In this document: positions 1,823 through 60,738 of the stretch, one piece after another | Layout: each line of letters opens with the position of its first letter | Position numbering within the stretch: position 1 is the first letter of the stretch | DNA from: Escherichia coli | GTDB lineage: Bacteria > Pseudomonadota > Gammaproteobacteria > Enterobacterales > Enterobacteriaceae | NCBI RefSeq assembly: GCF_017348835.2 | Contig: NZ_CP071375.1 | Direction: 5' to 3' (one strand) | Length of the DNA: 64,000 nucleotides | Notes under the pieces: generated by a model | What the model saw: only the letters and a program-made list of their open reading frames with translations | Told to the model about the DNA's origin: nothing | The model's database searches: none | Program-made: the position numbers and the translations under genes

Positions 1823-2479
1823 ATGCCATCTACACGCTATCAAAAAATCAATGCCCATCACTATCGCCATATATGGGTCGTTGGTGATATTCATGGTGAA
1901 TATCAGTTATTACAATCCCGCTTACATCAACTCTCTTTTTTCCCCGAAACCGACTTACTTATTTCTGTCGGCGATAATATTGATCGTGGGCCGGAGAGTC
2001 TTAACGTCCTGCGCCTGCTAAACCAGCCCTGGTTTATCTCCGTTAAAGGCAACCACGAAGCAATGGCGCTGGATGCGTTCGCGACCGGCGATGGCAATAT
2101 GTGGCTTGCCAGCGGTGGTGACTGGTTTTTCGATTTAAATGATTCAGAGCAAAAAGAAGCTACAGATCTGTTGCTGAAATTCCATCACCTTCCACATATT
2201 ATTGAAATCACTAACGACAACATAAAATATGTCATCGCACATGCAGATTATCCGGGGAGTGAATATCTCTTTGGTAAAGAAATAGCGGAGAGCGAATTAC
2301 TCTGGCCTGTTGATCGTGTGCAGAAATCGCTTAATGGCGAGTTACAACAAATAAACGGCGCTGATTATTTTATATTTGGACATATGATGTTTGATAACAT
2401 TCAGACGTTCGCTAACCAGATTTATATTGATACCGGATCGCCGAAAAGCGGGCGGCTGTCATTTTATAAAATAAAGTAA
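1823..2479 (+). CDS. pphB: Serine/threonine protein phosphatase 2 (calcineurin-like metallophosphoesterase)
   Basis: 218 aa with the metallophosphatase motifs GDIHG, GDNIDRG and GNHE; lies immediately downstream of mutS as in E. coli. Confidence 0.85.
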   Translation: MPSTRYQKINAHHYRHIWVVGDIHGEYQLLQSRLHQLSFFPETDLLISVGDNIDRGPESLNVLRLLNQPWFISVKGNHEAMALDAFATGDGNMWLASGGDWFFDLNDSEQKEATDLLLKFHHLPHIIEITNDNIKYVIAHADYPGSEYLFGKEIAESELLWPVDRVQKSLNGELQQINGADYFIFGHMMFDNIQTFANQIYIDTGSPKSGRLSFYKIK

Positions 2480-2519
2480 TGAGGCCGGGTAAAGCAAAGC
2501 CACTACCCGGCACTTTTTA

Positions 2520-2756
2520 TTAGCGCTTACCTTCCGCCAGCAGCGGCGGGATGCTCGGCACCATTGGCGCGTCATCAATATCTTTCTGCGTCATGCGGAA
2601 CGCTTCGGGATAATGTTCGCGGCTGGTACGGCGCAGCGGTTCGGTATCGCGCCAGGTATAAAGGCAATGCTGGCACTGATATACCGTCCAGACATCTTTC
2701 ACCGGCGATTTCGCCATCACTTCAATCTGTTCATCGGCACAACGTGGACAAATCAT
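2520..2756 (-). CDS. Small subunit of a UbiD-type phenolic acid decarboxylase (BsdD/VdcD-like), Cys4 zinc-ribbon-like
   Basis: 78 aa with CPRC...CQHC; last gene of a three-gene minus-strand operon after the UbiX-like and UbiD-like genes (B-C-D order). Confidence 0.65.
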   Translation of the reverse strand: MICPRCADEQIEVMAKSPVKDVWTVYQCQHCLYTWRDTEPLRRTSREHYPEAFRMTQKDIDDAPMVPSIPPLLAEGKR

Positions 2757-2766
2757 CTTGTTCTCC

Positions 2767-4194
2767 TTATTTACGTGCGGCCAGCATAGCGGTCAGTTTT
2801 TCAGCCCAGGCTTTGGTTTCCGGCAAATCCACCACCGGCTGGCTGTAGTGACCACGGTTGTCCGGGGCGACAGGCGTGGTGGCGTCGATAATCAGCTTGT
2901 CGGTGATCCCCGCCTGGCTTGAGCCAGGGTCGAGTTCCAGCACGGACATATTCGGCAACTGCACCAAATCCCCTGCCGGATTTACTTTCGAGGAGAGCGC
3001 CCACATCACCTGCGGCAGGTTGAACGGGTCAACGTCTTCATCGACCATAATCACCATCTTTACGTAGCCCAGACCGTGCGGCGTGGTCATCGCACGCAGG
3101 CCCACCGCGCGGGCAAAGCCGCCGTAGCGTTTTTTGGTGGAGATAATCGCCAGCAGGCCGTGGGTGTACATGGCGTTTACCGCCTGCACTTCCGGGAACT
3201 CGGCTTTCAGTTGTTGATACAGCGGCACGCAGGTGGCAGGCCCCATCAGGTAGTCGATTTCGGTCCACGGCATGCCGAGGTACAGCGATTCGAAAATCGG
3301 CCTGGTGCGGTAAGAGACTTTATCGATGCGCACCACGGTCATGTTACGCCCGCCGGAGTAGTGTCCGGTAAACTCACCGAACGGCCCTTCGATTTCGCGT
3401 TTACGGCTTTCGATGACCCCTTCGAGGATCACTTCTGAACCCCACGGCACATCAAAACCGGTCAGCGGGGCGGTGGCGATCGGGTACGGGCTTTCACGCA
3501 GCGCGCCTGCCATTTCATACTCAGACTGATCGTATTTCAGCGGCGTGGCCCCCATCAGCGTGATGATCGGATCGTTACCGAGCGTGATCGCAATCGGCAG
3601 ATCTTCACCGCGCTCTTCTGCTTTATGCAGATGCAGGGCGATATCGTGCATCGGCACCGGTTGCAGGCCGAGCTTACGCTTGCCCTTCACTTCCATGCGG
3701 TAGATGCCGACGTTCTGCTTGCCGAAGTTATCCGGGTCGAGCGGATCGCGGGAAACCACGCAGGCTTTGTCGAGATAGAAACCGCCATCGCCATCGTTTA
3801 AACGAAACAGCGGCAGGATATCGAACAGGTTAATCTCGTCGCTATCAACGGTGTTCTGCGCCCAGGCAGGATTGGCGCGGCGCTCCGGGGCAATCGGGAA
3901 GTTATCCCAGCGGCGGATAAACTCATCAATCTGCTTTTTGACCGGGGTGTTTGGTGGCAGGCCAAGGGAAATCGCGTGGTTCTGCCAGGAACCGATGGTA
4001 TTCATCGCCACGCGGGCATCGGTAAAGCCGCGAATATTATCAAACCACAGCGCGGGCGCGCCGTCGCCGATACGCCCGGTGGCGTTAGCTGCTGCTGCCA
4101 GATCCGGTTCCGCGTTCACCTCTTCGCTGATTTTCAGTAACTGGCCGTGGTCATCAAGCGCCTGTAAAAAGCTGCGTAAATCATCAAATGCCAT
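2767..4194 (-). CDS. UbiD-family (prFMN-dependent) decarboxylase, BsdC/VdcC-like
   Basis: 475 aa with overall UbiD-family character; its start overlaps the stop of the upstream UbiX-like gene at 4194. Confidence 0.85.
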   Translation of the reverse strand: MAFDDLRSFLQALDDHGQLLKISEEVNAEPDLAAAANATGRIGDGAPALWFDNIRGFTDARVAMNTIGSWQNHAISLGLPPNTPVKKQIDEFIRRWDNFPIAPERRANPAWAQNTVDSDEINLFDILPLFRLNDGDGGFYLDKACVVSRDPLDPDNFGKQNVGIYRMEVKGKRKLGLQPVPMHDIALHLHKAEERGEDLPIAITLGNDPIITLMGATPLKYDQSEYEMAGALRESPYPIATAPLTGFDVPWGSEVILEGVIESRKREIEGPFGEFTGHYSGGRNMTVVRIDKVSYRTRPIFESLYLGMPWTEIDYLMGPATCVPLYQQLKAEFPEVQAVNAMYTHGLLAIISTKKRYGGFARAVGLRAMTTPHGLGYVKMVIMVDEDVDPFNLPQVMWALSSKVNPAGDLVQLPNMSVLELDPGSSQAGITDKLIIDATTPVAPDNRGHYSQPVVDLPETKAWAEKLTAMLAARK

Positions 4195-4787
4195 TATTCA
4201 TTCTCCTGAGAAAAATTCCGGGCCTGCGGCAATCCTTGCCAGCGCCTGGCGTGGGGATGTTCGAGGCCAAATTGATCCAGCACGCGGGCTACCACATGGT
4301 GGACAATGTCATCTACCGTTTCGGGATGGTTATAAAAGGCAGGCATCGGCGGCACCATCGCCACGCCCATGCGTGAAAGTGCGAGCATATTTTCGAGATG
4401 GATGGTGCTAAGCGGCATTTCACGCGGCACCAGCACCAGTTTGCGGCCTTCTTTGAGCACGACGTCCGCCGCGCGCCCTACCAGGCCATCAGCGTAACCA
4501 GCGCGGATACCGGCGAGCGTTTTCATACTGCACGGAATAACGATCATGCCGTCGGTACGAAAAGAACCTGAGGAGATGGTCGCCGCCTGATCCGCCGGTT
4601 TATGGCTGAAGTCAGCGAGGGCAGCAACATCGCGGGCGCTGTAAGGCGTTTCCAGTTCAATGGTGGTTTTCGCCCACTTCGACATCACCAGATGAGTCTC
4701 GACATTCGGCATCTCCCGCAGCGCTTGCAGTAATGCCACACCAAGAGGCGCACCGGTAGCCCCTGTCATCCCGACGATCAGTTTCAT
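4194..4787 (-). CDS. UbiX-family flavin prenyltransferase (Pad1/BsdB/VdcB-like)
   Basis: 197 aa, MKLIVGMTGATGA N-terminus and SGSF...IPCSMKTLAGI motifs typical of UbiX/Pad1. Confidence 0.85.
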   Translation of the reverse strand: MKLIVGMTGATGAPLGVALLQALREMPNVETHLVMSKWAKTTIELETPYSARDVAALADFSHKPADQAATISSGSFRTDGMIVIPCSMKTLAGIRAGYADGLVGRAADVVLKEGRKLVLVPREMPLSTIHLENMLALSRMGVAMVPPMPAFYNHPETVDDIVHHVVARVLDQFGLEHPHARRWQGLPQARNFSQENE

Positions 4788-16910: not shown

Positions 16911-17237
<327 letters not shown>

Positions 17238-17241
<4 letters not shown>

Positions 17242-18806
17242 TCAGCAGCCTCCTGCTTTTTCTCCCTGGCGGCTTTAGCACTTTGCTTCTCCGCCGATGT
17301 TGTAAAATATTTCTTGCGCGCGGTCATGACGCGTTCCAAATCAACGGGCTCATAAGGATTGGTGAATACACGCTCGTCAAAATCCTGACGTGCGAATAAC
17401 CAAATTTCCTTTTGCCATTTGCCGAGTAATTCATCCGCATCCTGACCTTCTTCAATTTGGCGCACTAACCTCAGGAAGCGATGCTGAGTTTTGTTCCAGA
17501 AGTCGATATCCACAAAACTGAAATCACCCCTTGCACCTTTTGGATCGGAGAACCATGCTTCTTTCAATGCACTCCGTAACAGACTCAGAATCCGTGAAGC
17601 CGTTTGCGCAGCCAGCCGCAGCTTCGGTATCTGGCCTTCTTTTTTATTGAGCAATAGAGGGAAATGGTGTTCGTACCAACAGCGAACCTTCATATCTTCG
17701 AAATCATAACCAAATCCCCACAAGCCTATTTTTGTCTGCTTTAGATTGCTGGCATTGAAAAGCTTCACTACCTGTGCGGGGAGTTCAGTATTGTTTTTTG
17801 ATTTACCTTCCTCTATGAGGCCTAACCAGTCGCGCCAGATTAAACCACCTGGTTGTGGTTTAACTGAGTAAAACTCTCCTCCCTCTTTAAGCGGCATACG
17901 GTAAGGTGTTAGAGGATGCCTCCACATGACGTATTGCACCCCATTGTTTTTAAGTGCCATCAAGCTCAATAGAGCGCCGCTCTGACTACCGCAAATATCG
18001 CAGTTGCCAATTGAGGTTGTCTTAAAATCAATACGAATACGCCGAGGCATTCCCCAGTAGGCCTGAAGTTTATTGACTTGTTCATCGGTTATCACAGCAC
18101 CATCCAGTTCACTGGTACGCGTCGGTGCAAGCCAGGGAAAGACCAGGTCATCAAAGGTTTTTGGTAAAGGTAAATCGGCTTCATCCTGTGGCATTACGTT
18201 AAGCCACAGCTTGCGCCACAAAGGGGGTTGTGGATTGCCCTGATACTCCAGCAATTCTATAAGTGTGGTCAGCGGCCCCCCGCCACGTAACCCCGGATAG
18301 TAACCGCGTCCACCTTTGGGAGCATTCAGCTGGATTGAAAAAAGTGCTAAAGGCACACAATGCAGGCATATATGCTGAATTGTATCTCGCTTAATAAAAT
18401 GGTCTTTATTTCGTTCTTTTGTTTGTTTTCCTGGTATGTCAGGAAGAAGCGAAGCAATAGAACTAACCTTAACTCTTAATTCTTCGAAATCCTGCATAAA
18501 TGAAGGTGAATCTGGCCCGAACTGGAAAGCATGTTCTAATAACAGCAATGCTTCCCGTAGCTTTTCGGCTTCCAGTCCGTCTTCCCAGATATCATCCCAA
18601 CGACGATGATCTTTTGGCGCGAAGCTGGTTTGTAGTAACCCCAGCAAAAACTGCCAGGCCGCCCCCTGGAGATCTGCCCGCGGCGCAGCGATATCGACAA
18701 CATTTTCATCCGCCAGATCGACTGGCGCCAGTTTGCCTGTCGTTCCGTCTTTAAAACGAACGGGCAACCACGGGGTTGTCAGAAGTGAAAACGAGTTCAT
18801 ACGCAT
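17238..18806 (-). CDS. cse1: Type I-E Cascade large subunit Cse1 (CasA), apparently intact
   Basis: About 520 aa from MRMNSFSLLTTPWLPVR; GLRGGGPLTTL motif; directly downstream of cas3. The ORF-track start at 18860 is an upstream extension. Confidence 0.85.
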
Positions 18807-18889
18807 CCTCTCGTAAAAAAGACCATCCAGGTCGGTTATCCATCCTTTTCGGTGTATCAACTATTCAGAGAGTCTCTGTCGCAGGCATC

Positions 18890-21484
18890 TCAATCAACCT
18901 TGCCAATCAATCCCTCCCTGGCCGAATACCCGCAACTTTCGTCATCAGTGACTAAAATCACGTTTGCCATCTCCGGATCTTGCCGTTGTTCAACACACCA
19001 CTGCCTGAACGCTTCCCCTTCCAGTAAAGAAAATTCATCCCGATGTTTTTTCCACCAGCTTCGACGCACTCTGGCAACGCTCATTTCCCATGCGTGAGCA
19101 CCGCTGGCATAAGGCTTCACCACACCGTCAATACAGGTAGCCAGCCACAGGGAAACAGACTCTTCAGCCAGACGTGTCGACAGCTTTTCCGGGAGGTAAT
19201 CGTTGATATTGGCGGCATAGCCGGGCCTGAAGTTCAGCATAAACTTTTTAGCCATTGCGCGATCGCAGTAATATTTGCCCACTTGCTCCTGCTCGCTGCG
19301 GGCAAATCCTTCCGGCATTACCACGTCCTCACCGTAGACGGATTCAATAAGAAGCCGGGCTGCGTGTGGCATCTGAATAGCGCCTTGCTCACGCAATACT
19401 CGCTGCGTCAGCCAGATTCGCCCATGATCGGGGTAGACATATGCGCTGTTACGCATCGCACTGCCAAACCATTCGTCACCCGGAGAGTCGTCCCAGACGG
19501 GGGCCAGAATCAGCAATTCAGGAGGGGAACGCTCGTCTTTTCCATCACGCTTTAACTGACCATTAATATCGCGAATATGCCGTTGTAATCGCCCCGCTCG
19601 CTGGATCAGCAAATCAATGGGGGCCAGGTCGGAGATCATTTCGTCCAGGTCAATATCCACACTTTGCTCAATTACTTGTGTACAAACAATGACTTGAGAT
19701 GATCTTTTTAAACTACAATTTTTACCAAAGCGTGCCAGCGTTTCCGTTTCAATTCGCTGGCGATCGCTAAAAGCAAAGCGGCTATGAAAAAGTGAAAGGC
19801 TGGAAGCAGGAATGACGCCGCGGGCAAGTAACTGACGATAAACCTTAATAGCGTCATCGACAGAATTCCGGATCCAGGCGATGCATTTCCCCTGACTTAC
19901 CGCTGATTCGATACGCGCAATACATTCTTGTTCGCTATGAAGCCAACCCACGCTCACGCTACGCTCAACGTCTTTGCGCGTCGCTACCCGGTGCGAATGC
20001 ACATCGGATTTCGTGACATGCGTCAGCCAGGGGTAATCATCCTTTTCCAGGAACGGAGCTTCTTGCTGGCCCTCTGTGCCACGCGCAAAGGCGGCGACAA
20101 GTTTGTCGCGCTGCTGTTGAGATAACGTAGCAGAAAGCAAAATGACGCTGTTTCCGCCACGCACCTGTCGCTCAATCAACCCTTCAAGAATGTACGACAT
20201 GTAAGCGTCACAGGCGTGGATCTCATCAGCCAGCAGGATTTTGTTACTCAACCCCAGAAGCCGCAGATTATTATGTTTAAACGGCATCACTGCCATCATC
20301 GCCTGATCCAGCGTGCCGACGCCAATTTCAGCCAGTAAAGCCTTCTTGTTACTGTCGGCAAACCAGGCTGCACATCCTTGACTGAACGCTTGTTCATCCG
20401 GTTCTTCTGACCCGACTAAATCACCGGACCAGAGTGATTCATTAAAGCGTTCCATTAATGTACGGGCGCTGTGTGCCAGCACCAGGCTGGGGCGGGATTC
20501 TGGCGAAAAGAAAGCAAGCCAGGTTTTGACCAGCCGATCGTACATGGCATTGGCCGTTGCCATTGTTGGCAGGCCAAAAAACAAACCCTGTGCTTTCCTC
20601 GCAGCCATCAACCTGTGCGCCAGGATAAGCGCCGCTTCTGTTTTACCTGCGCCAGTCACGTCTTCCAGAATAAATAACTTTGGCCCTGGCTGGCTGATAT
20701 CCAGATCCAGCACCTTTTGCTGTAATGGTGTCGGGTGCTCAATAAAAGGAAACAGCGTATTAATTCCGGTGAAAGGTGCGGTTTCTGCTTTTGGAGGAAA
20801 GACGGTTAAGGCGTTTTGAGCCTGAACTAAAGTTTTCTGCCAGTAATCTTTAATATCCATTGGGTGTGCGACGCGTGGAAAAAATCGCGTTGACGAACCC
20901 GTCCAGTCTGCGAGTACGACTGTTGCAGAGATATACCAGGAAAGTTGTTTTAAAAGTTCAACGCCCTCGTCATCATCCCAGAATGTGGGAATCTCTATGA
21001 GCGGAAACAGTGCCTTGATTTCAAGGAGAAAATCTCGCGCGGCAGCTTTGTCTTCAGGCAGAAAATTATCCAGCTCATCAATACGGTCAGGTGGTCGACC
21101 ATGATGCCCGGTAGTTATGGACATCCACATCTCTATTACACGTGTAAGTTTACGAGAAGAGAGTGAAGATGAAGGAAGCAACTCCTCACATTCACTTAAA
21201 TAATAATTCCACAGCCAGTAACCCAGCGTTGAATGAGAGATCTTTTCGTAATTCTTTCTGGAACCTTCCGGAATCTTGAGTTCAGGGGCCAGGTAAAGTT
21301 GCTGAAAAGAGCGGGCAAATTTTCCAATATCGTGCCAGCACAACAACCAGGCGAAAAATTGAGCCGCCTGTTCCTTGTCAGAAATCCCTAATTGACGAAA
21401 ATAATCAGCCAGCCCGAAGCAATTTCTTTTAACCATTAAATAGCCCATCGCGGCCACATCCAGCGAATGCCAGCAAAGAAGGTG
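18890..21484 (-). pseudogene. cas3: cas3 (type I-E HD nuclease/helicase), codon 36 to stop; 5' end severed by IS629
   Basis: HD motif HDIGKF, Walker A TGAGKT, DExH box DEIHACD and helicase C-terminal region present. The frame is open upstream right up to the IS boundary at 21484 with no native start; the ORF-track start at 21457 is a GTG. Confidence 0.9.
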
Positions 21485-21538
21485 TGAACCGCCCCGGAAA
21501 TCCTGGAGACTAAACTCCCTGAGAAAGAGGTAAACAGG

Positions 21539-21865
21539 ATGACTAAAAATACTCGTTTTTCCCCCGAAGTCCGTCAGCGGGCGATTCGTATGGTTCTGGA
21601 AAGTCAGGATGAATATGACTCACAGTGGGCGGCAATTTGTTCCATTGCCCCAAAGATTGGCTGTACGCCGGAGACTCTGCGTGTCTGGGTTCGCCAGCAT
21701 GAGCGGGATACCGGGAGTGGTGATGGTGGACTCACCACCGCTGAACGTCAGCGTCTGAAAGAGCTGGAACGTGAAAATCGTGAACTGCGCCGCAGTAACG
21801 ATATCCTTCGCCAGGCTTCCGCTTATTTTGCGAAGGCGGAGTTCGACCGCCTCTGGAAAAAATAA
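21539..21865 (+). CDS. IS629-like OrfA (HTH transposase N-terminal protein)
   Basis: 108 aa, [22 protein letters not shown]..., HTH plus leucine zipper typical of IS3-family OrfA. Confidence 0.9.
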
Positions 21866-22752
21866 TGCCACTGCTGGATAAGCTGCGTGAGCAGTACGGG
21901 GTCGGACCGGTATGCAGCGAACTGCATATTGCCCCGTCAACGTATTACCATTGTCAGCAACAGCGACATCATCCGGATAAACGCAGTGCCCGTGCGCAGC
22001 ACGATGACTGGCTGAAGAAAGAGATACAGCGCGTATACGATGAAAATCACCAGGTATACGGTGTGCGTAAAGTCTGGCGTCAGTTGTTACGGGAAGGTAT
22101 CAGAGTGGCCAGATGCACTGTGGCACGTCTCATGGCAGTTATGGGACTTGCCGGTGTTCTCCGGGGTAAAAAGGTCCGCACTACCGTCAGCCGGAAAGCC
22201 GTTGCCGCATGCGACCGCGTAAACCGTCAGTTCGTGGCAGAACGTCCAGACCAGTTGTGGGTGGCTGATTTTACCTGGGTAAGCACATGGCAGGGCTTCG
22301 TTTATGTGGCGTTCATCATTGATGTGTTCGCCGGATACATCGTGGGATGGCAGGTCTCATCATCCATGGAAACAACATTCGTGCTGGATGCACTGGAGCA
22401 GGCGTTGTGGGCCCGTCGGCCGTCCGGCACAATCCATCACAGTGATAAAGGTTCTCAGTATGTATCGCTGGCCTACACGCAGCGGCTTAAGGAAGCCGGA
22501 TTACTGGCATCAACAGGGAGTACTGGCGACTCGTATGACAACGCGATGGCTGAGAGCATCAATGGTCTTTACAAAGCGGAGGTAATACACCGTAAGAGCT
22601 GGAAAAACCGGACAGAAGTGGAACTGGCCACACTAACGTGGGTGGACTGGTATAACAATCGACGATTGCTGGAAAGGCTGGGCCATATTCCTCCGGCAGA
22701 AGCAGAAAAAGCTTATTATGCTTCCATCGGAAATAATGATCTGGCAGCCTGA
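21865..22752 (+). CDS. IS629-like OrfB (DDE/rve integrase-core transposase)
   Basis: 295 aa rve domain; in the -1 frame relative to orfA, with an A6 run at the overlap. Confidence 0.9.
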   Translation: MPLLDKLREQYGVGPVCSELHIAPSTYYHCQQQRHHPDKRSARAQHDDWLKKEIQRVYDENHQVYGVRKVWRQLLREGIRVARCTVARLMAVMGLAGVLRGKKVRTTVSRKAVAACDRVNRQFVAERPDQLWVADFTWVSTWQGFVYVAFIIDVFAGYIVGWQVSSSMETTFVLDALEQALWARRPSGTIHHSDKGSQYVSLAYTQRLKEAGLLASTGSTGDSYDNAMAESINGLYKAEVIHRKSWKNRTEVELATLTWVDWYNNRRLLERLGHIPPAEAEKAYYASIGNNDLAA

Positions 22753-22794
22753 GTTCACAGATAAAACACTCTCCAGGAAACCCGGGGCGGTTCA

Positions 22795-23094: not shown

Positions 23095-23247
23095 CTACTT
23101 CTTCGATTCGTAAGCGAGAACAGCCTTAAACTCCATACCACGTTCCCTGATACTCAACTCACACAACGAGTCGCCTACCATCAGCGTGAATCCCAGTACT
23201 GTACAACACAGTACGATGATTGCCACAAGGGCATATTTTGTCAGCAT
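23095..23247 (-). CDS. Hok/Gef-family type I toxin (50 aa; below the ORF-track length cutoff)
   Basis: Minus-strand [53 protein letters not shown]: one transmembrane helix followed by the Hok signature SLCE...AYE. Confidence 0.7.
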
Positions 23248-23308
23248 GTCTGTGTAAGTTCACAGAGATATTGCAATTGCCTCCGGATAAGTAAGGGGAG
23301 ATTGCACT

Positions 23309-24739
23309 ATGCAAATGCAGCATCTGATGGTTGGCTATCCTAAGTACTACCAAACGGCCGATTATGCGTTGAGGCTTTCAGTGATGGCTGATATAGCAAC
23401 AATGAGAATGAAGGCTCTGCACTTCTGGGATAAACACGGTATTTCTGCAGCTTCTGAAGCCTTTGGCGTGTCCTGCCGCACGCTTTACTGGTGGCGTCAG
23501 TTACTGAACAAGGAAGGACCTGAGGGGCTAATCCCGCACAGTAAGGCACCTCTGGTGCGACGAAAAAAACACTGGCATCCCGATGTGCTGAAAGAGATTC
23601 GACGCCTCAGGACAGAGCTGCCGAACCTCGGTAAAGAGCAGATTTTTGTTCGCCTGAAGCCCTGGTGCGAACAGCGCTATCTGGCCTGTCCGAGTGTTTC
23701 CACCATCGGCAGAATGATCGCTGCCGCACATGATAAAATGCGGATGATACCTGTGCGTCTGGGATCGCGGGGGAAGGCACTGCTTGTCAAAAAGCGGTCT
23801 GCCAAACCCCGCAGGCCAAAGCACTACCGCCCGGTAAAGACAGGTGAGCTCATTGGGATGGACGCCATTGAGCTCAGAATGGGCGAACTGCGTCGCTATG
23901 TCATCACCATGATCGACGAATGCAGCAATTACGCGCTGGCTGTGCCGTCACTCAACAGTGATATCGTCAATCACTTCTTCAGCCGCGCAGCCCGGTTGTT
24001 CCCGGTCGGTATCAGCCAGATAATCACAGATAACGGAAAAGAGTTCCTGGGAAACTTCGACAAAACGCTGCAGGAAGCCGCTATCAAACACCTCTGGACC
24101 TATCCCTACACGCCAAAAATGAACGCTATCTGTGAACGTTTTAACCGGACGTTAAGAGAGCAGTTTATTGAATTTAATGAGATTTTACTCTTTGAAGATC
24201 TGGCGCTATTTAACCAGAAGCTGGCGGAATATCTGGTGCTGTATAACAGCAAAAGACCCCACAAGGCGCTCGCACTAATGACGCCCGTGGAATATATTTT
24301 AAAAGAGAATAAAAATTGCAATATGTGGTGGACCCATACAATGTCTTGCCTCCCTGCAAAGAAGAGACTAACATTCGAATTGCTTAGGTTCGAACGCTGG
24401 CCTCAGGTTGATAGAAATATCGCCTGGGGCTTTTGTCCATCTGGAACCTCGCGAATGCTTAACGCCAGACAGCCTCAAGCACCCGACGCCATTCTATACC
24501 TGATAATTCTTCCAGCGGCGTTCACGTTTAAAATCAGGAATGCTGCTCGCAAAATAAAAACGCCCCCATCATTTCTGACAGAGGCGTTTAATTTATCCGG
24601 CAATATTTACCCTTCGTGTAACCCACATTCCCTTTTTAAGCCAAAGAAACGCGTTTCTTCTTCCGCCATGCCAGGTTCCCATTTACGGGTTGTATGGGTA
24701 TCACCGACCGATAAATATCCTTCGTCCCATAATGGGTGA
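23309..24739 (+). mobile_element. rve-domain (DDE integrase-core) transposase ORF, IS481-like; probably a 3'-truncated IS remnant
   Basis: HTH near the N-terminus (FGVSCRTLYWWRQ), catalytic core with GMDAIE...TDNGKEF...CERFNRT, ending about YNSKRPHKALALMTPVEY near 24300. The ORF then runs ~140 low-complexity codons without a stop and overlaps the cysH 3' end. No terminal inverted repeats recognised. Confidence 0.5.
24553..24590 (-). terminator. Putative intrinsic terminator downstream of cysH
   Basis: Minus-strand hairpin AAACGCC...GGCGTTT followed by TTTTATTTT about 20 nt after the cysH stop; the loop is long, so the hairpin is weak. Confidence 0.4.
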
Positions 24740-54934: not shown

Positions 54935-56275
54935 TTAACGCACCATGCACGGGCGCTTGTTATCGAACGTCCAGCCAGGAATCAGATACTGCATTCCCAT
55001 CGCATCGTCACGCGCGCCAAGCCCGTGTTTCTGATACAGCTCATGGGCTTTCATCACTTGATCCATATCGATTTCTACACCCAGCCCCGGTTTTTCTGGC
55101 ACCTGTACCAGCCCGCCTTTGATCTCAAACGGTTCTTTGGTCAGGCGCTGATTGCCTTCCTGCCAAATCCAGTGCGTATCAATAGCAGTAATTTTACCCG
55201 GTGCAGCGGCGGCAACATGGGTAAACATCGCCAGGGAAATATCGAAGTGGTTGTTAGAGTGTGAACCCCAGGTCAGGCCAAATTCATGGCACATTTGCGC
55301 CACACGTACCGAACCTTGCATCGTCCAGAAATGCGGATCCGCCAGCGGGATATCAACGGATTGTAACGAGAGCGTATGGCCCATCTGCCGCCAGTCGGTG
55401 GCGATCATATTGGTTGCTGTCGGCAGGCCAGTCGCGCGACGGAACTCTGCCATCACTTCACGCCCGGAGAAACCTTGCTCCGCACCACACGGATCTTCTG
55501 CATAAGCCAGCGAACCTTTCAGGTATTTACCAATTTTAATCGCTTCGTTCAGCGACCAGGCACCGTTAGGATCGAGCGTAATACGCGCCTGCGGGAAGCG
55601 TTGCGCCAGTGCCACAATAGACTCGGCCTCTTCTTCCCCGGCCAGTACACCGCCTTTCAGTTTGAAATCGTTGAAGCCATATTTTTCATACGCCGCTTCC
55701 GCCAGGCGCACCACCGCATCCGGCGTCATCGCTTCTTCATGACGCAGGCGATACCAGTCGCATGAGTCATCCGGCTGGCTTTGATACGGCAGAGGTGTGG
55801 CTTTGCGATTACCGACGAAGAACAGATAACCGAGCATTTCGACTTCGCTACGCTGTTGACCATCGCCCAGCAGGGATGCCACGTTAACCCCCAGATGCTG
55901 CCCCAGCAGATCCAGCATTGCCGCTTCTATCCCGGTAACTACATGAATAGTGGTACGCAAATCAAATGTCTGCAAACCGCGCCCGCCGGCATCACGATCG
56001 GCAAAAGTATTACGCACCAGCGTCAGAACGTTTTTGTATTCACCCAGCGTTTTACCCACTACCAGCGGAATCGCATCTTCCAGCGTTTTACGGATTTTCT
56101 CGCCGCCGGGAATTTCCCCTACGCCAGTGTGACCAGAATTATCTTTGATAATCACAATATTACGCGTGAAGAACGGTGCGTGTGCACCACTCAGATTCAT
56201 CAGCATACTGTCATGGCCCGCCACCGGGATGACCTGCATTTCAGTAACAACAGGCGTCGTAAATTGAGAACTCAT
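54935..56275 (-). CDS. gudD: Glucarate dehydratase (enolase superfamily)
   Basis: 446 aa from [24 protein letters not shown]. Confidence 0.93.
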
Positions 56276-56295: not shown

Positions 56296-57636
56296 TCAAT
56301 GACGGCCGAAAACGGGACGTTTACGGTCAAAGGTCCAGCCGGGGATCAGGTACTGCATCGGGCCTGCGTCGTTACGCGCACCGCCAGGCAGACGTTCATA
56401 GGCCTCATGTGCCTTTTGTACCTGTTCCCAGTCCAGTTCCACGCCCAGACCGGGCGCATCAGGAACGGCAATTTTTCCGTTTTTAATCTCCAGCGGATTT
56501 TTGGTCAGGCGACAGTCGCCCTCCTGCCAAATCCAGTGGGTATCGATAGCGGTAGGATTACCCGGTGCCGCCGCGCCCACATGGGTAAACATCGCCAGAG
56601 AGATATCGAAATGGTTATTAGAATGGCAGCCCCAGGTCAGCCCCCAGTCGTCGCAAAGCTGCGCCACACGGACTGCACCGGAAAGCGTCCAGAAGTGCGG
56701 ATCGGCAAGTGGAATATCTACCGCATTGAGCATCACCGCATGACCCATTTCGCGCCAGTTGGTGGCGATCATGTTAGTCGCGACGGGCAAGCCGGTCGCC
56801 CGCCGAAACTCCGCCATCACTTCACGTCCGGAGAAGCCCTGTTCTGCGCCGCATGGATCTTCGGCATAGGTAAGAACATCATTCAGCCCTTTGCACAGAG
56901 AAATGGCTTCATCAAGCAGCCATGCACCGTTGGGATCAACGGTAATCCGCGCATCCGGGAAGCGTTTCTTCAATGCACGAACAGTGTCGATTTCTTGCTC
57001 GCCAGGTAACACGCCGCCCTTAAGTTTGAAATCTTTAAAGCCGTAGCGATCCTGTGAGGCTTCCGCCAGACGCACAACGGCTTCGCTGTTCATCGCTTTC
57101 TGATGGCGCAACTGATACCACTCATGGTTGCCCGGCGTATTTTCCAGATAAGGAAGATCGGTTTTGGTCCGATCACCGATATAAAACAGATAACCGAGGA
57201 CGGTAATAGCATCGCGTTGTTTGCCTGGTCCTAATAGTTCGCAGACCGGAACATTCAGCGCCTTACCTAGCAGGTCAAGCAAGGCGGCTTCCAACGCCGC
57301 CACGGCATTAACGCGCAATTCAAAAGTCCAGGCTCCTTTACCGAAGGTATCAAAATCGGCGGCCTGATTACCTTTATGCACCTGCTGAACCACTTTATTC
57401 AGGCGCGCAACTTCCTGGCCCAGCACCATCGGAATAGCTTCGACCAGTGTTTGATAAATCACCTCTCCGCCCGGCGCTTCACCAATGCCGGTATGCCCGG
57501 CATTATCGGTGAGTACCACGATATTGCGGGTGAAGTATGCGTTATGCGCACCACCAATATTGAGCAACATGCTGTCATGTCCGGCGACCGGAATGACTTT
57601 CATATCAGTAATAACAGGACTGGATTGTGTCGTCAT
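56296..57636 (-). CDS. gudX: Glucarate dehydratase-related protein
   Basis: 446 aa paralogue of gudD immediately upstream. Confidence 0.9.
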
Positions 57637-57637
57637 C

Positions 57638-58448
57638 TTATTGCCCCGCGACAGGTTTCAGCTCGATACGCTTGATATCGCCCACCAGCACCAGGTAGCT
57701 CAGTACCGCGATTAAGGCATGAACACCAACATAAATCAGCGCCCCATTAAACGAGCCAGTCGTGCCAACGATATAACCAATTGCGATTGGCGTGACGATG
57801 CCAGAAATGTTACCGAACATGTTGAACAGGCCACCGGAAAGACCGCTGATCTCTTTTGGCGCGGTATCTGCCATTACTGCCCAACCCAGCGCCCCAATGC
57901 CCTTACCGAAGAAGGCCAGCGCCATAAAGCCGATGATCATCCACTCAACGTTGACGTAGTTGCAGAACACCATCACCATCGACAGCAACATGCCCATTAC
58001 GATCGGTGTTTTACGCGCAATGTTCAGCGATCCCGTGCGGCGCATCAGCCAGTCGGAAATAATCCCACCCAGCACACCACCGATAAAACCACAAACCGCC
58101 GGAACGGAAGCCACAAAGCCCGCTTTCAGAATCGACATCCCACGCGCCTGCACCAGATAAACCGGAAACCAGGTAATGAAAAAGTAAGTCAGGGCGTTGA
58201 TACAGTACTGACCGATATAAACGCCGATCATCATCCGTGACCCGAGCAGCTGTTTGATCTGCCCCCACTTCACGCTGAACGGCACTTTAACTTTGGTGTT
58301 TTGCTGATCCATATTGATCAGCGCGCCACCCGCGGCGATGTACTCCAGCTCTTTCTGATTTACCCCCGGATGTTGATTTGGCTCGTGGATGACTTTCAAC
58401 CAGATAAAGCTGATGACAATCCCCAGACCGCCCATAAAGAAGAAGACG
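57638..58448 (-). pseudogene. gudP: gudP 3' portion (C-terminal ~270 codons of the glucarate/galactarate MFS transporter), severed by IS629
   Basis: Frame reads ...(H)VFFFMGGLGIVISFIWLK... and is open upstream to the IS boundary at 58448. Confidence 0.9.
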
Positions 58449-58502
58449 TGAACCGCCCCGGAAATCCTGGAGACTAAACTCCCTGAGAAAGAGGTAAACA
58501 GG

Positions 58503-58829
58503 ATGACTAAAAATACTCGTTTTTCCCCCGAAGTCCGTCAGCGGGCGATTCGTATGGTTCTGGAAAGTCAGGATGAATATGACTCACAGTGGGCGGCAAT
58601 TTGTTCCATTGCCCCAAAGATTGGCTGTACGCCGGAGACTCTGCGTGTCTGGGTTCGCCAGCATGAGCGGGATACCGGGAGTGGTGATGGTGGACTCACC
58701 ACCGCTGAACGTCAGCGTCTGAAAGAGCTGGAACGTGAAAATCGTGAACTGCGCCGCAGTAACGATATCCTTCGCCAGGCTTCCGCTTATTTTGCGAAGG
58801 CGGAGTTCGACCGCCTCTGGAAAAAATAA
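58503..58829 (+). CDS. IS629-like OrfA
   Basis: Identical 108-aa product to copy 1 orfA. Confidence 0.9.
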
Positions 58830-59716
58830 TGCCACTGCTGGATAAGCTGCGTGAGCAGTACGGGGTCGGACCGGTATGCAGCGAACTGCATATTGCCCCG
58901 TCAACGTATTACCATTGTCAGCAACAGCGACATCATCCGGATAAACGCAGTGCCCGTGCGCAGCACGATGACTGGCTGAAGAAAGAGATACAGCGCGTAT
59001 ACGATGAAAATCACCAGGTATACGGTGTGCGTAAAGTCTGGCGTCAGTTGTTACGGGAAGGTATCAGAGTGGCCAGATGCACTGTGGCACGTCTCATGGC
59101 AGTTATGGGACTTGCCGGTGTTCTCCGGGGTAAAAAGGTCCGCACTACCGTCAGCCGGAAAGCCGTTGCCGCATGCGACCGCGTAAACCGTCAGTTCGTG
59201 GCAGAACGTCCAGACCAGTTGTGGGTGGCTGATTTTACCTGGGTAAGCACATGGCAGGGCTTCGTTTATGTGGCGTTCATCATTGATGTGTTCGCCGGAT
59301 ACATCGTGGGATGGCAGGTCTCATCATCCATGGAAACAACATTCGTGCTGGATGCACTGGAGCAGGCGTTGTGGGCCCGTCGGCCGTCCGGCACAATCCA
59401 TCACAGTGATAAAGGTTCTCAGTATGTATCGCTGGCCTACACGCAGCGGCTTAAGGAAGCCGGATTACTGGCATCAACAGGGAGTACTGGCGACTCGTAT
59501 GACAACGCGATGGCTGAGAGCATCAATGGTCTTTACAAAGCGGAGGTAATACACCGTAAGAGCTGGAAAAACCGTGCAGAAGTGGAACTGGCCACACTCA
59601 CGTGGGTGGACTGGTATAACAATCGACGATTGCTGGAAAGGCTGGGCCATATTCCTCCGGCAGAAGCAGAAAAAGCTTATTATGCTTCCATCGGAAATAA
59701 TGATCTGGCAGCCTGA
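58829..59716 (+). CDS. IS629-like OrfB (rve transposase)
   Basis: 295 aa; one substitution (T to A) relative to copy 1. Confidence 0.9.
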   Translation: MPLLDKLREQYGVGPVCSELHIAPSTYYHCQQQRHHPDKRSARAQHDDWLKKEIQRVYDENHQVYGVRKVWRQLLREGIRVARCTVARLMAVMGLAGVLRGKKVRTTVSRKAVAACDRVNRQFVAERPDQLWVADFTWVSTWQGFVYVAFIIDVFAGYIVGWQVSSSMETTFVLDALEQALWARRPSGTIHHSDKGSQYVSLAYTQRLKEAGLLASTGSTGDSYDNAMAESINGLYKAEVIHRKSWKNRAEVELATLTWVDWYNNRRLLERLGHIPPAEAEKAYYASIGNNDLAA

Positions 59717-59758
59717 GTTCACAGATAAAACACTCTCCAGGAAACCCGGGGCGGTTCA

Positions 59759-60304
59759 GACGTGTGACCAGCCCACTTCATGCGTCAGCCAGCCCATAAT
59801 CGGCGCGAAGATCACCGTTGCGAAGTATTGAGCGGAGTTAAAAATCGACACCGCCGTTCCCCTTTCCTGCGCCGGAAACCAGGCCGCAACAATGCGACTG
59901 TTGCCGGGGAAAGATGGCGCTTCAGCAAGCCCGACCAGGAAGCGCAGAGTAAACAGGGCAACGATAATGCCGAATCCACTAAAGATATCGACGAAGCCTT
60001 GCAGCAAGGTAAACATCGACCAGATAAAGATCGACCAGAAGTAGACGCGTTTTGAACCAAAACGATCCAGCAACCAACCACCAGGGATCTGCCCGATAAC
60101 ATAAGCCCATGAGAAGGCAGAGAACACATAGCCCATTCCCACGGGATCAAGGCCGATATCTTTGGCCATTTCCGAACCGGCAATAGAAAGCGTAGCGCGG
60201 TCGCCGTAGTTGAAGGATGTGACGATAAACAACATCACCACTATCCAGTAACGAGCATTCGTGCGTTTTTCCACACTGCTCGCAGCCTGACTTAAAGAAC
60301 TCAT
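59759..60304 (-). pseudogene. gudP: gudP 5' portion (N-terminal ~181 codons), terminated by a stop supplied by the IS end
   Basis: MSSLSQAASSVEKRTNARYWIVVM...THEVGWSHV then TGA formed by the IS629 terminal TCA (minus strand). Confidence 0.9.
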
Positions 60305-60738
60305 TGTTGCACTCCTGAAAATTCGCGTTAGCCACGCTCACTCTGGACTGCGACATCGCCAGGAAATCAGAGGTGACGTAGGGTGTTTTTTGCCGTTTTT
60401 ATAGGTCGTTCGCCGAATACGGCGCGTGTTTATATCTGGCAATAGCAGTATAAAAAGCGCGCCATAGCGGCTCACCGTGCAACAACACAACATTAATGCG
60501 TTCAATGAGGCCCGATTTTGGCATTAGCCCTGGACGGTGGAATCCACTTCACGGAAATGAAAACAAGAACAAGAAAGGAAGGGTTAAAACGAAGAAATAA
60601 AGAAGAGTATGAAATGGATCGCTTGACTCCAGGCAAACGCCAGTAAAAATCCGCGCTATGAAGCAGTTTTTACTGGCATTTGCCTGAAAAGATTCGATTC
60701 AGCACCGCTAAAACGACATTTACCGCTCGCTGAACATA

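Follow-up and report, generated by a model that had tools for sequence, protein, structure and literature searches.

Interruption of the Escherichia coli glucarate transporter gene gudP by an IS629 copy flanked by a 4-bp target duplication

Results

The split gudP gene and its restoration in silico

In this work, a window of 64,000 nucleotides of Escherichia coli DNA (contig NZ_CP071375.1) was analysed, and all positions below refer to it. The sequence between 57400 and 60600, read together with the list of open reading frames, contains gudP on the minus strand in two collinear pieces, with an element on the plus strand between them. As delimited by excision and by comparison with K-12, the 5′ fragment (59759–60304, minus strand) holds codons 1–182, and the 3′ fragment (57638–58444, minus strand) holds codons 183–450 and the stop codon. 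The open reading frame of the 5′ fragment including its stop spans 59756–60304 and encodes 182 aa. An earlier count of 181 codons for this piece has to be corrected, because 59759–60304 amounts to 546 nt and thus to 182 codons. V182 has its codon inside the duplicated GACG, and directly after it the reading frame meets a TGA contributed by the IS terminus (59756–59758). The unique C-terminal part of the gene comprises residues 183–450 (268 codons, 57641–58444), followed by the stop. Upstream of the gene, the regulatory region (60305–60704, minus strand) shows 0 differences from K-12 in 400 nt.

The element is directly abutted on both sides by a copy of GACG, the left one at 58445–58448 and the right one at 59759–59762. 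K-12 gudP carries a single GACG at the empty site; the repeat therefore arose by duplication of a 4-bp target and is no coincidental match, in agreement with the original prediction. That prediction also held that removal of the element with one GACG would restore the frame. When the excision was run, deletion of 58449–59762 gave a continuous open reading frame of 1353 nt, encoding 450 aa plus the stop and containing ...HEVGWSHVFFFMGGLGIV.... Excision of the IS alone, or of the IS with 3 nt, left the gene out of frame with six stops in each case; only the IS plus 4 nt restored gudP.

The restored protein is identical to GudP of K-12 MG1655 (b2789) at 449 of 450 residues, with K212Q as the sole change and 20 differences at the nucleotide level. 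It scores 538.6 bits against TIGR00893, for which the curated cut-off is 395. The interrupted gene had already been named as gudP, and both results bear this out. GudP is a galactarate/glucarate transporter of the anion:cation symporter family within the MFS. Orthology to b2789 rests on sequence and on synteny, the order gudP–gudX–gudD lying beside barA and yqcA. Furthermore, the restored GudP could be aligned over its full length with the D-galactonate transporter DgoT, the structure of which is solved (6e9n; E = 7.5e-110), and in this alignment the break immediately precedes the hydrophobic stretch VFFFMGGLGIVISFIW. This would place the break where transmembrane helix 6 of the 12-helix MFS fold begins, as far as the DgoT alignment can tell. 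Since 1314 bp have been inserted behind codon 182, the gene lacks a continuous open reading frame for a 12-helix transporter and is a pseudogene. Translation of the C-terminal fragment from an in-frame ATG at 58435 (265-aa open reading frame) was considered and rejected, since no Shine-Dalgarno sequence lies upstream, and half of an MFS transporter is not expected to be functional.

The inserted element

The element occupies 58449–59758 on the plus strand (1310 bp) and belongs to the IS3 family, with the left inverted repeat at 58449–58473 and the right one at 59734–59758. Its ends read TGAACCGCCCCGG... and ...CCGGGGCGGTTCA; the terminal inverted repeats agree at 22 of 25 positions, and the termini are of the TG...CA form. 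On the plus strand, orfA (58503–58829, 108 aa) ends at a slippery run of six A (58821–58826), and orfB (58829–59716, 295 aa), which encodes the rve integrase/DDE core, follows in the −1 frame relative to orfA. The overlap is covered by a full-length match to the ALIL frameshift-stimulating pseudoknot (Rfam RF01497; 58784–58900, plus strand; 120.3 bits against a gathering score of 50, E = 9.7e-32), and PGAP labels an identical IS copy with a "programmed frameshift". The OrfB protein reaches 312.6 bits against the NCBIfam IS3 transposase model NF033516 (cut-off 160) and contains the Pfam domains rve (4.8e-25) and HTH_21.

The element matches the IS629 copy annotated in phage BP-4795 with 99.3% identity (9 differences) and the copies in O157 Stx2a phages with 98.4% identity. 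Isoforms were taken to share more than about 95% nucleotide identity, the comparison being made with annotated phage copies in place of the ISfinder type sequence. The target duplication of IS629 is reported as 3–4 bp (PMC3271280), and the reference phage copies are flanked by 3-bp duplications. In length and ends, orfA–orfB −1 frameshift, rve domain, a duplication of 3–4 bp and isoform-level identity, the element is an IS629, so the earlier description as IS629-like is confirmed by the identity to the annotated phage copy and by the NF033516 score. Since orfA, orfB, the frameshift signal and the inverted repeats are all intact, this copy can probably still transpose.

The downstream genes gudX and gudD

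The gene gudX for the glucarate dehydratase-related protein (56296–57636, minus strand) has its start codon 1 nt past the gudP stop, and gudD for D-glucarate dehydratase (54935–56275, minus strand) starts 20 nt past the gudX stop. As originally predicted, both genes are intact. GudX is full length, differs from the K-12 protein by 7 substitutions and has no internal stop, and GudD is identical to its K-12 counterpart in amino acid sequence, with 898.7 bits against TIGR03247 (cut-off 828.7). The three genes gudP, gudX and gudD reportedly form one transcription unit under a promoter activated by CdaR, and the gene spacing agrees with this. Gaps of 1 and 20 nt leave no space for promoters of gudX and gudD themselves, so a polar effect of the insertion on both genes is plausible. 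Inside the IS, the search for intrinsic terminators on the minus strand gave six weak matches compared with 4.0 ± 1.9 in shuffled sequence, and no strong terminator was evident.

Distribution of the allele

In a search of complete E. coli genomes for a place covering at least 80% of 57638–60304, 3 of 5426 genomes qualified, one of them being WP7-S17-ESBL-04, which has a different insertion in the operon (see below). The gudP::IS629 allele with identical junctions is found in two of the 5426, namely PE164, a pig isolate from China, and F2_81, isolated from a pig rectal swab in Australia. The window differs from these two genomes at 4–6 positions over 12–25 kb. In both, the RefSeq (PGAP) annotation shows gudP as two pseudogene halves and, with them, an IS3-family transposase with an ALIL feature; the 5′ piece is labelled "GudP, incomplete, missing C-terminus" and the 3′ piece "GudP, incomplete, missing N-terminus". 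PE164 has been described as an O108:H9 porcine hybrid aEPEC/ExPEC (PMC12233904), in a paper that mentions neither glucarate nor insertion sequences. No paper on gudP together with IS629, nor on gudPXD, was found in the literature search.

A second IS629 copy and other features of the window

Another IS629 copy lies at 21485–22794 (plus strand) inside the 5′ end of cas3, in the same orientation as the gudP copy and with a 3-bp duplication (GTG). Only 3 differences separate the two copies (99.77% identity). PE164 has the cas3 copy and F2_81 lacks it, so the insertion in gudP is the older event in the lineage, and the younger cas3 copy suggests recent transposition activity. Compared with the same copy in PE164 and F2_81, the gudP IS of the window differs at 59575, 59576 and 59599 (TG...C vs GA...A; A250T in OrfB), and at these three positions the cas3 copy of the window has the PE164 alleles. 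The clustered differences could stem from gene conversion over a short tract, with another IS copy as donor, or from a mixing of repeats in the assembly consensus. In PE164 the gudP IS has lost 1 nt at the counterpart of 59132, and its transposase is therefore annotated as "frameshifted"; the window copy is intact.

The two copies stand in direct orientation about 35.7 kb apart and bracket eno, pyrG, relA, mazEFG, barA and gudDX. Recombination between them would remove the essential genes eno and pyrG, so cells with that deletion are not expected to be viable.

The type I-E cas operon itself is decayed. Its genes (16911–21457) include casA (17238–18800) and, after it, what is left of casB, fused next to cas2e (about 16911–17241), and the stretch from casB to cas1 appears to be deleted, judging from the PE164 annotation. 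By the same annotation, a Hok/Gef family toxin gene and a truncated integrase-core pseudogene (an IS remnant) lie beside the IS629 copy between cysH and cas3 (about 23095–24337), and a CRISPR array is located between ygcE and queE (about 40967–41301). Because the cas operon is decayed, this array is probably an orphan. A second transporter pseudogene of the window is the MFS gene yqcE, which is split into open reading frames at 37620–38267 and 38294–38824 and is recorded as frameshifted in the PE164 RefSeq annotation.

Discussion

Inactivation of gudP and the predicted phenotype

Simple insertional inactivation of gudP by IS629 is very probably the right explanation of this locus, and no evidence contradicting it was found. 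We propose that IS629 inserted after codon 182 and generated the 4-bp duplication typical of this element. The event would have taken place in an ancestor of a porcine, aEPEC-like E. coli lineage of type O108:H9, of which PE164 and F2_81 are the closest complete genomes. The N-terminal product ends at once at the TGA of the IS end, and the C-terminal part of gudP is left with neither a promoter nor a Shine-Dalgarno sequence. The nucleotide sequence thus shows that a functional full-length GudP cannot be formed. Transcripts from the unchanged CdaR-dependent promoter are expected to run into the IS antisense to the transposase genes. Their translation would cease at codon 183, and some 2.1 kb of untranslated RNA would lie between that point and gudX (1310 nt of IS and about 0.8 kb of gudP). 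Rho-dependent polarity classically arises under such conditions and should strongly lower the expression of gudX and gudD.

It would mean that growth on D-glucarate is absent or very poor. In the Keio collection, the gudP knockout abolished glucarate fermentation, and the garP knockout merely attenuated galactarate use (PMC11775122). On the other hand, growth on galactarate should be retained via garP, garD and garLRK, because garP, garD and garL are intact in PE164; statements of this kind on the rest of the genome are extrapolated from the relatives PE164 and F2_81, which differ slightly from the source of the window. Among the E. coli genomes with a match to garP, the gene is present in 5423 of 5425. 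Since a separate transporter and dehydratase (GarP and GarD) serve galactarate, growth on this substrate would say little about the gudP locus. GarP is itself annotated as a transporter of galactarate, glucarate and glycerate, and some glucarate might enter through it if gudD were still expressed.

Other readings of the locus

Of the alternatives, a reversible off-switch survives best, yet we regard it as unlikely. According to it, precise excision of the element, promoted by the IS-excision enhancer (IEE), restores gudP in subclones that are then selected by glucarate. IEE promotes the excision of IS629 and occurs patchily in EPEC, EHEC and ETEC (PMC9943667), and in STEC O121:H19 lactose use is regained when IEE excises IS600 from lacZ (PMC9397093). 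The closest genome is of the aEPEC type and has 26–35 places that match the IS629-containing query, and the exact loss of the IS with one copy of the repeat would give an intact gudP. However, identical junctions have been kept in isolates from China and Australia, which suggests stable inheritance and not frequent switching. A more far-reaching version, in which the switch is selectable and glucarate use is regained on the oxidised sugars of the inflamed gut, or in which the loss of glucarate use is itself adaptive, is quite improbable.

It is unlikely that gudX and gudD are expressed from an outward promoter of the IS, in a constitutive or transposase-linked manner independent of CdaR and glucarate. 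Outward or hybrid promoters in IS elements of several families can activate adjacent genes, and the original prediction had raised the possibility that the IS drives gudX and gudD. In this case, however, the transposase genes and their promoter are on the plus strand and point away from gudX and gudD. A standard promoter scan of the minus strand between 57300 and 60700 found no sigma-70-like site. In a relaxed scan, which accepted 8 or more matches out of 12, the left end of the IS likewise had no promoter-like site directed towards gudX. The only two weak matches of the relaxed scan are both in native gudP at 58419–58370, which equals the background rate. Furthermore, the untranslated 3′ fragment of gudP, about 0.8 kb long, would still separate the IS from gudX.

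A repeat misplaced during assembly is hardly credible: IS629 is multicopy in the lineage and the three clustered differences of the window copy may reflect repeat mixing in the consensus, but both junctions are base-perfect, K-12 has only one copy of the 4-bp sequence that is duplicated here, and two complete genomes that were assembled independently and come from different countries share these junctions.

Significance for the lineage

The insertional inactivation of gudP is thus an ordinary lineage-specific disruption, already on record in the public annotations of PE164 and F2_81, the closest genomes, and it involves no new mechanism or family. Its use lies in the prediction that one lineage of E. 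coli from pigs is glucarate-negative and galactarate-positive. In addition, the gudP::IS629 junction is a clean clonal marker, being confined to the two complete genomes named above, and the 32-mer spanning the right junction gave 0 matches in the metagenome contigs searched. The use of glucarate and galactarate aids the growth of Enterobacteriaceae in the inflamed or antibiotic-treated gut (background of PMC11775122), so a virulent pig strain in which the glucarate arm would have been lost naturally is of modest interest to those who study that lineage. Beyond strain characterisation, the relevance of the finding is small.

Comparison with known systems

The case resembles lacZ::IS600 of STEC O121:H19, the cause of delayed lactose utilisation, in that an element of the IS3 family likewise interrupts a catabolic gene of a pathogenic E. 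coli and is inherited clonally (PMC9397093). For lacZ::IS600 the reversibility by IEE was demonstrated by experiment, whereas gudP::IS629 is known here from its sequence alone. The element shares with IS629/IS1203 of Shigella and EHEC the length of 1310 bp, the TG...CA ends, the orfA/orfB arrangement with the A6 run and ALIL, the rve domain and the 3–4 bp duplication; the difference is one of isoform level only (9–21 nt). An element of the same group hits the same operon in E. coli WP7-S17-ESBL-04 (NZ_AP022177.1), an unrelated strain in which an independent IS1203, an IS629 isoform, splits gudX (2070–4723 of that sequence). There, the transposase is likewise antisense to the gud genes, but gudP is intact, and the strain is of another lineage with about 97.7% identity in the flanks. 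The closest counterparts are PE164 (NZ_CP114128.1, LZG51_RS04755–RS04765) and F2_81 (NZ_CP043542.1, CPH39_RS04940–RS04950). Both share with the window the insertion site, the orientation, the 4-bp duplication and the flanking genes, and the surrounding 12–25 kb are at least 99.97% identical, F2_81 differing from the window in its lack of the second IS629 in cas3.
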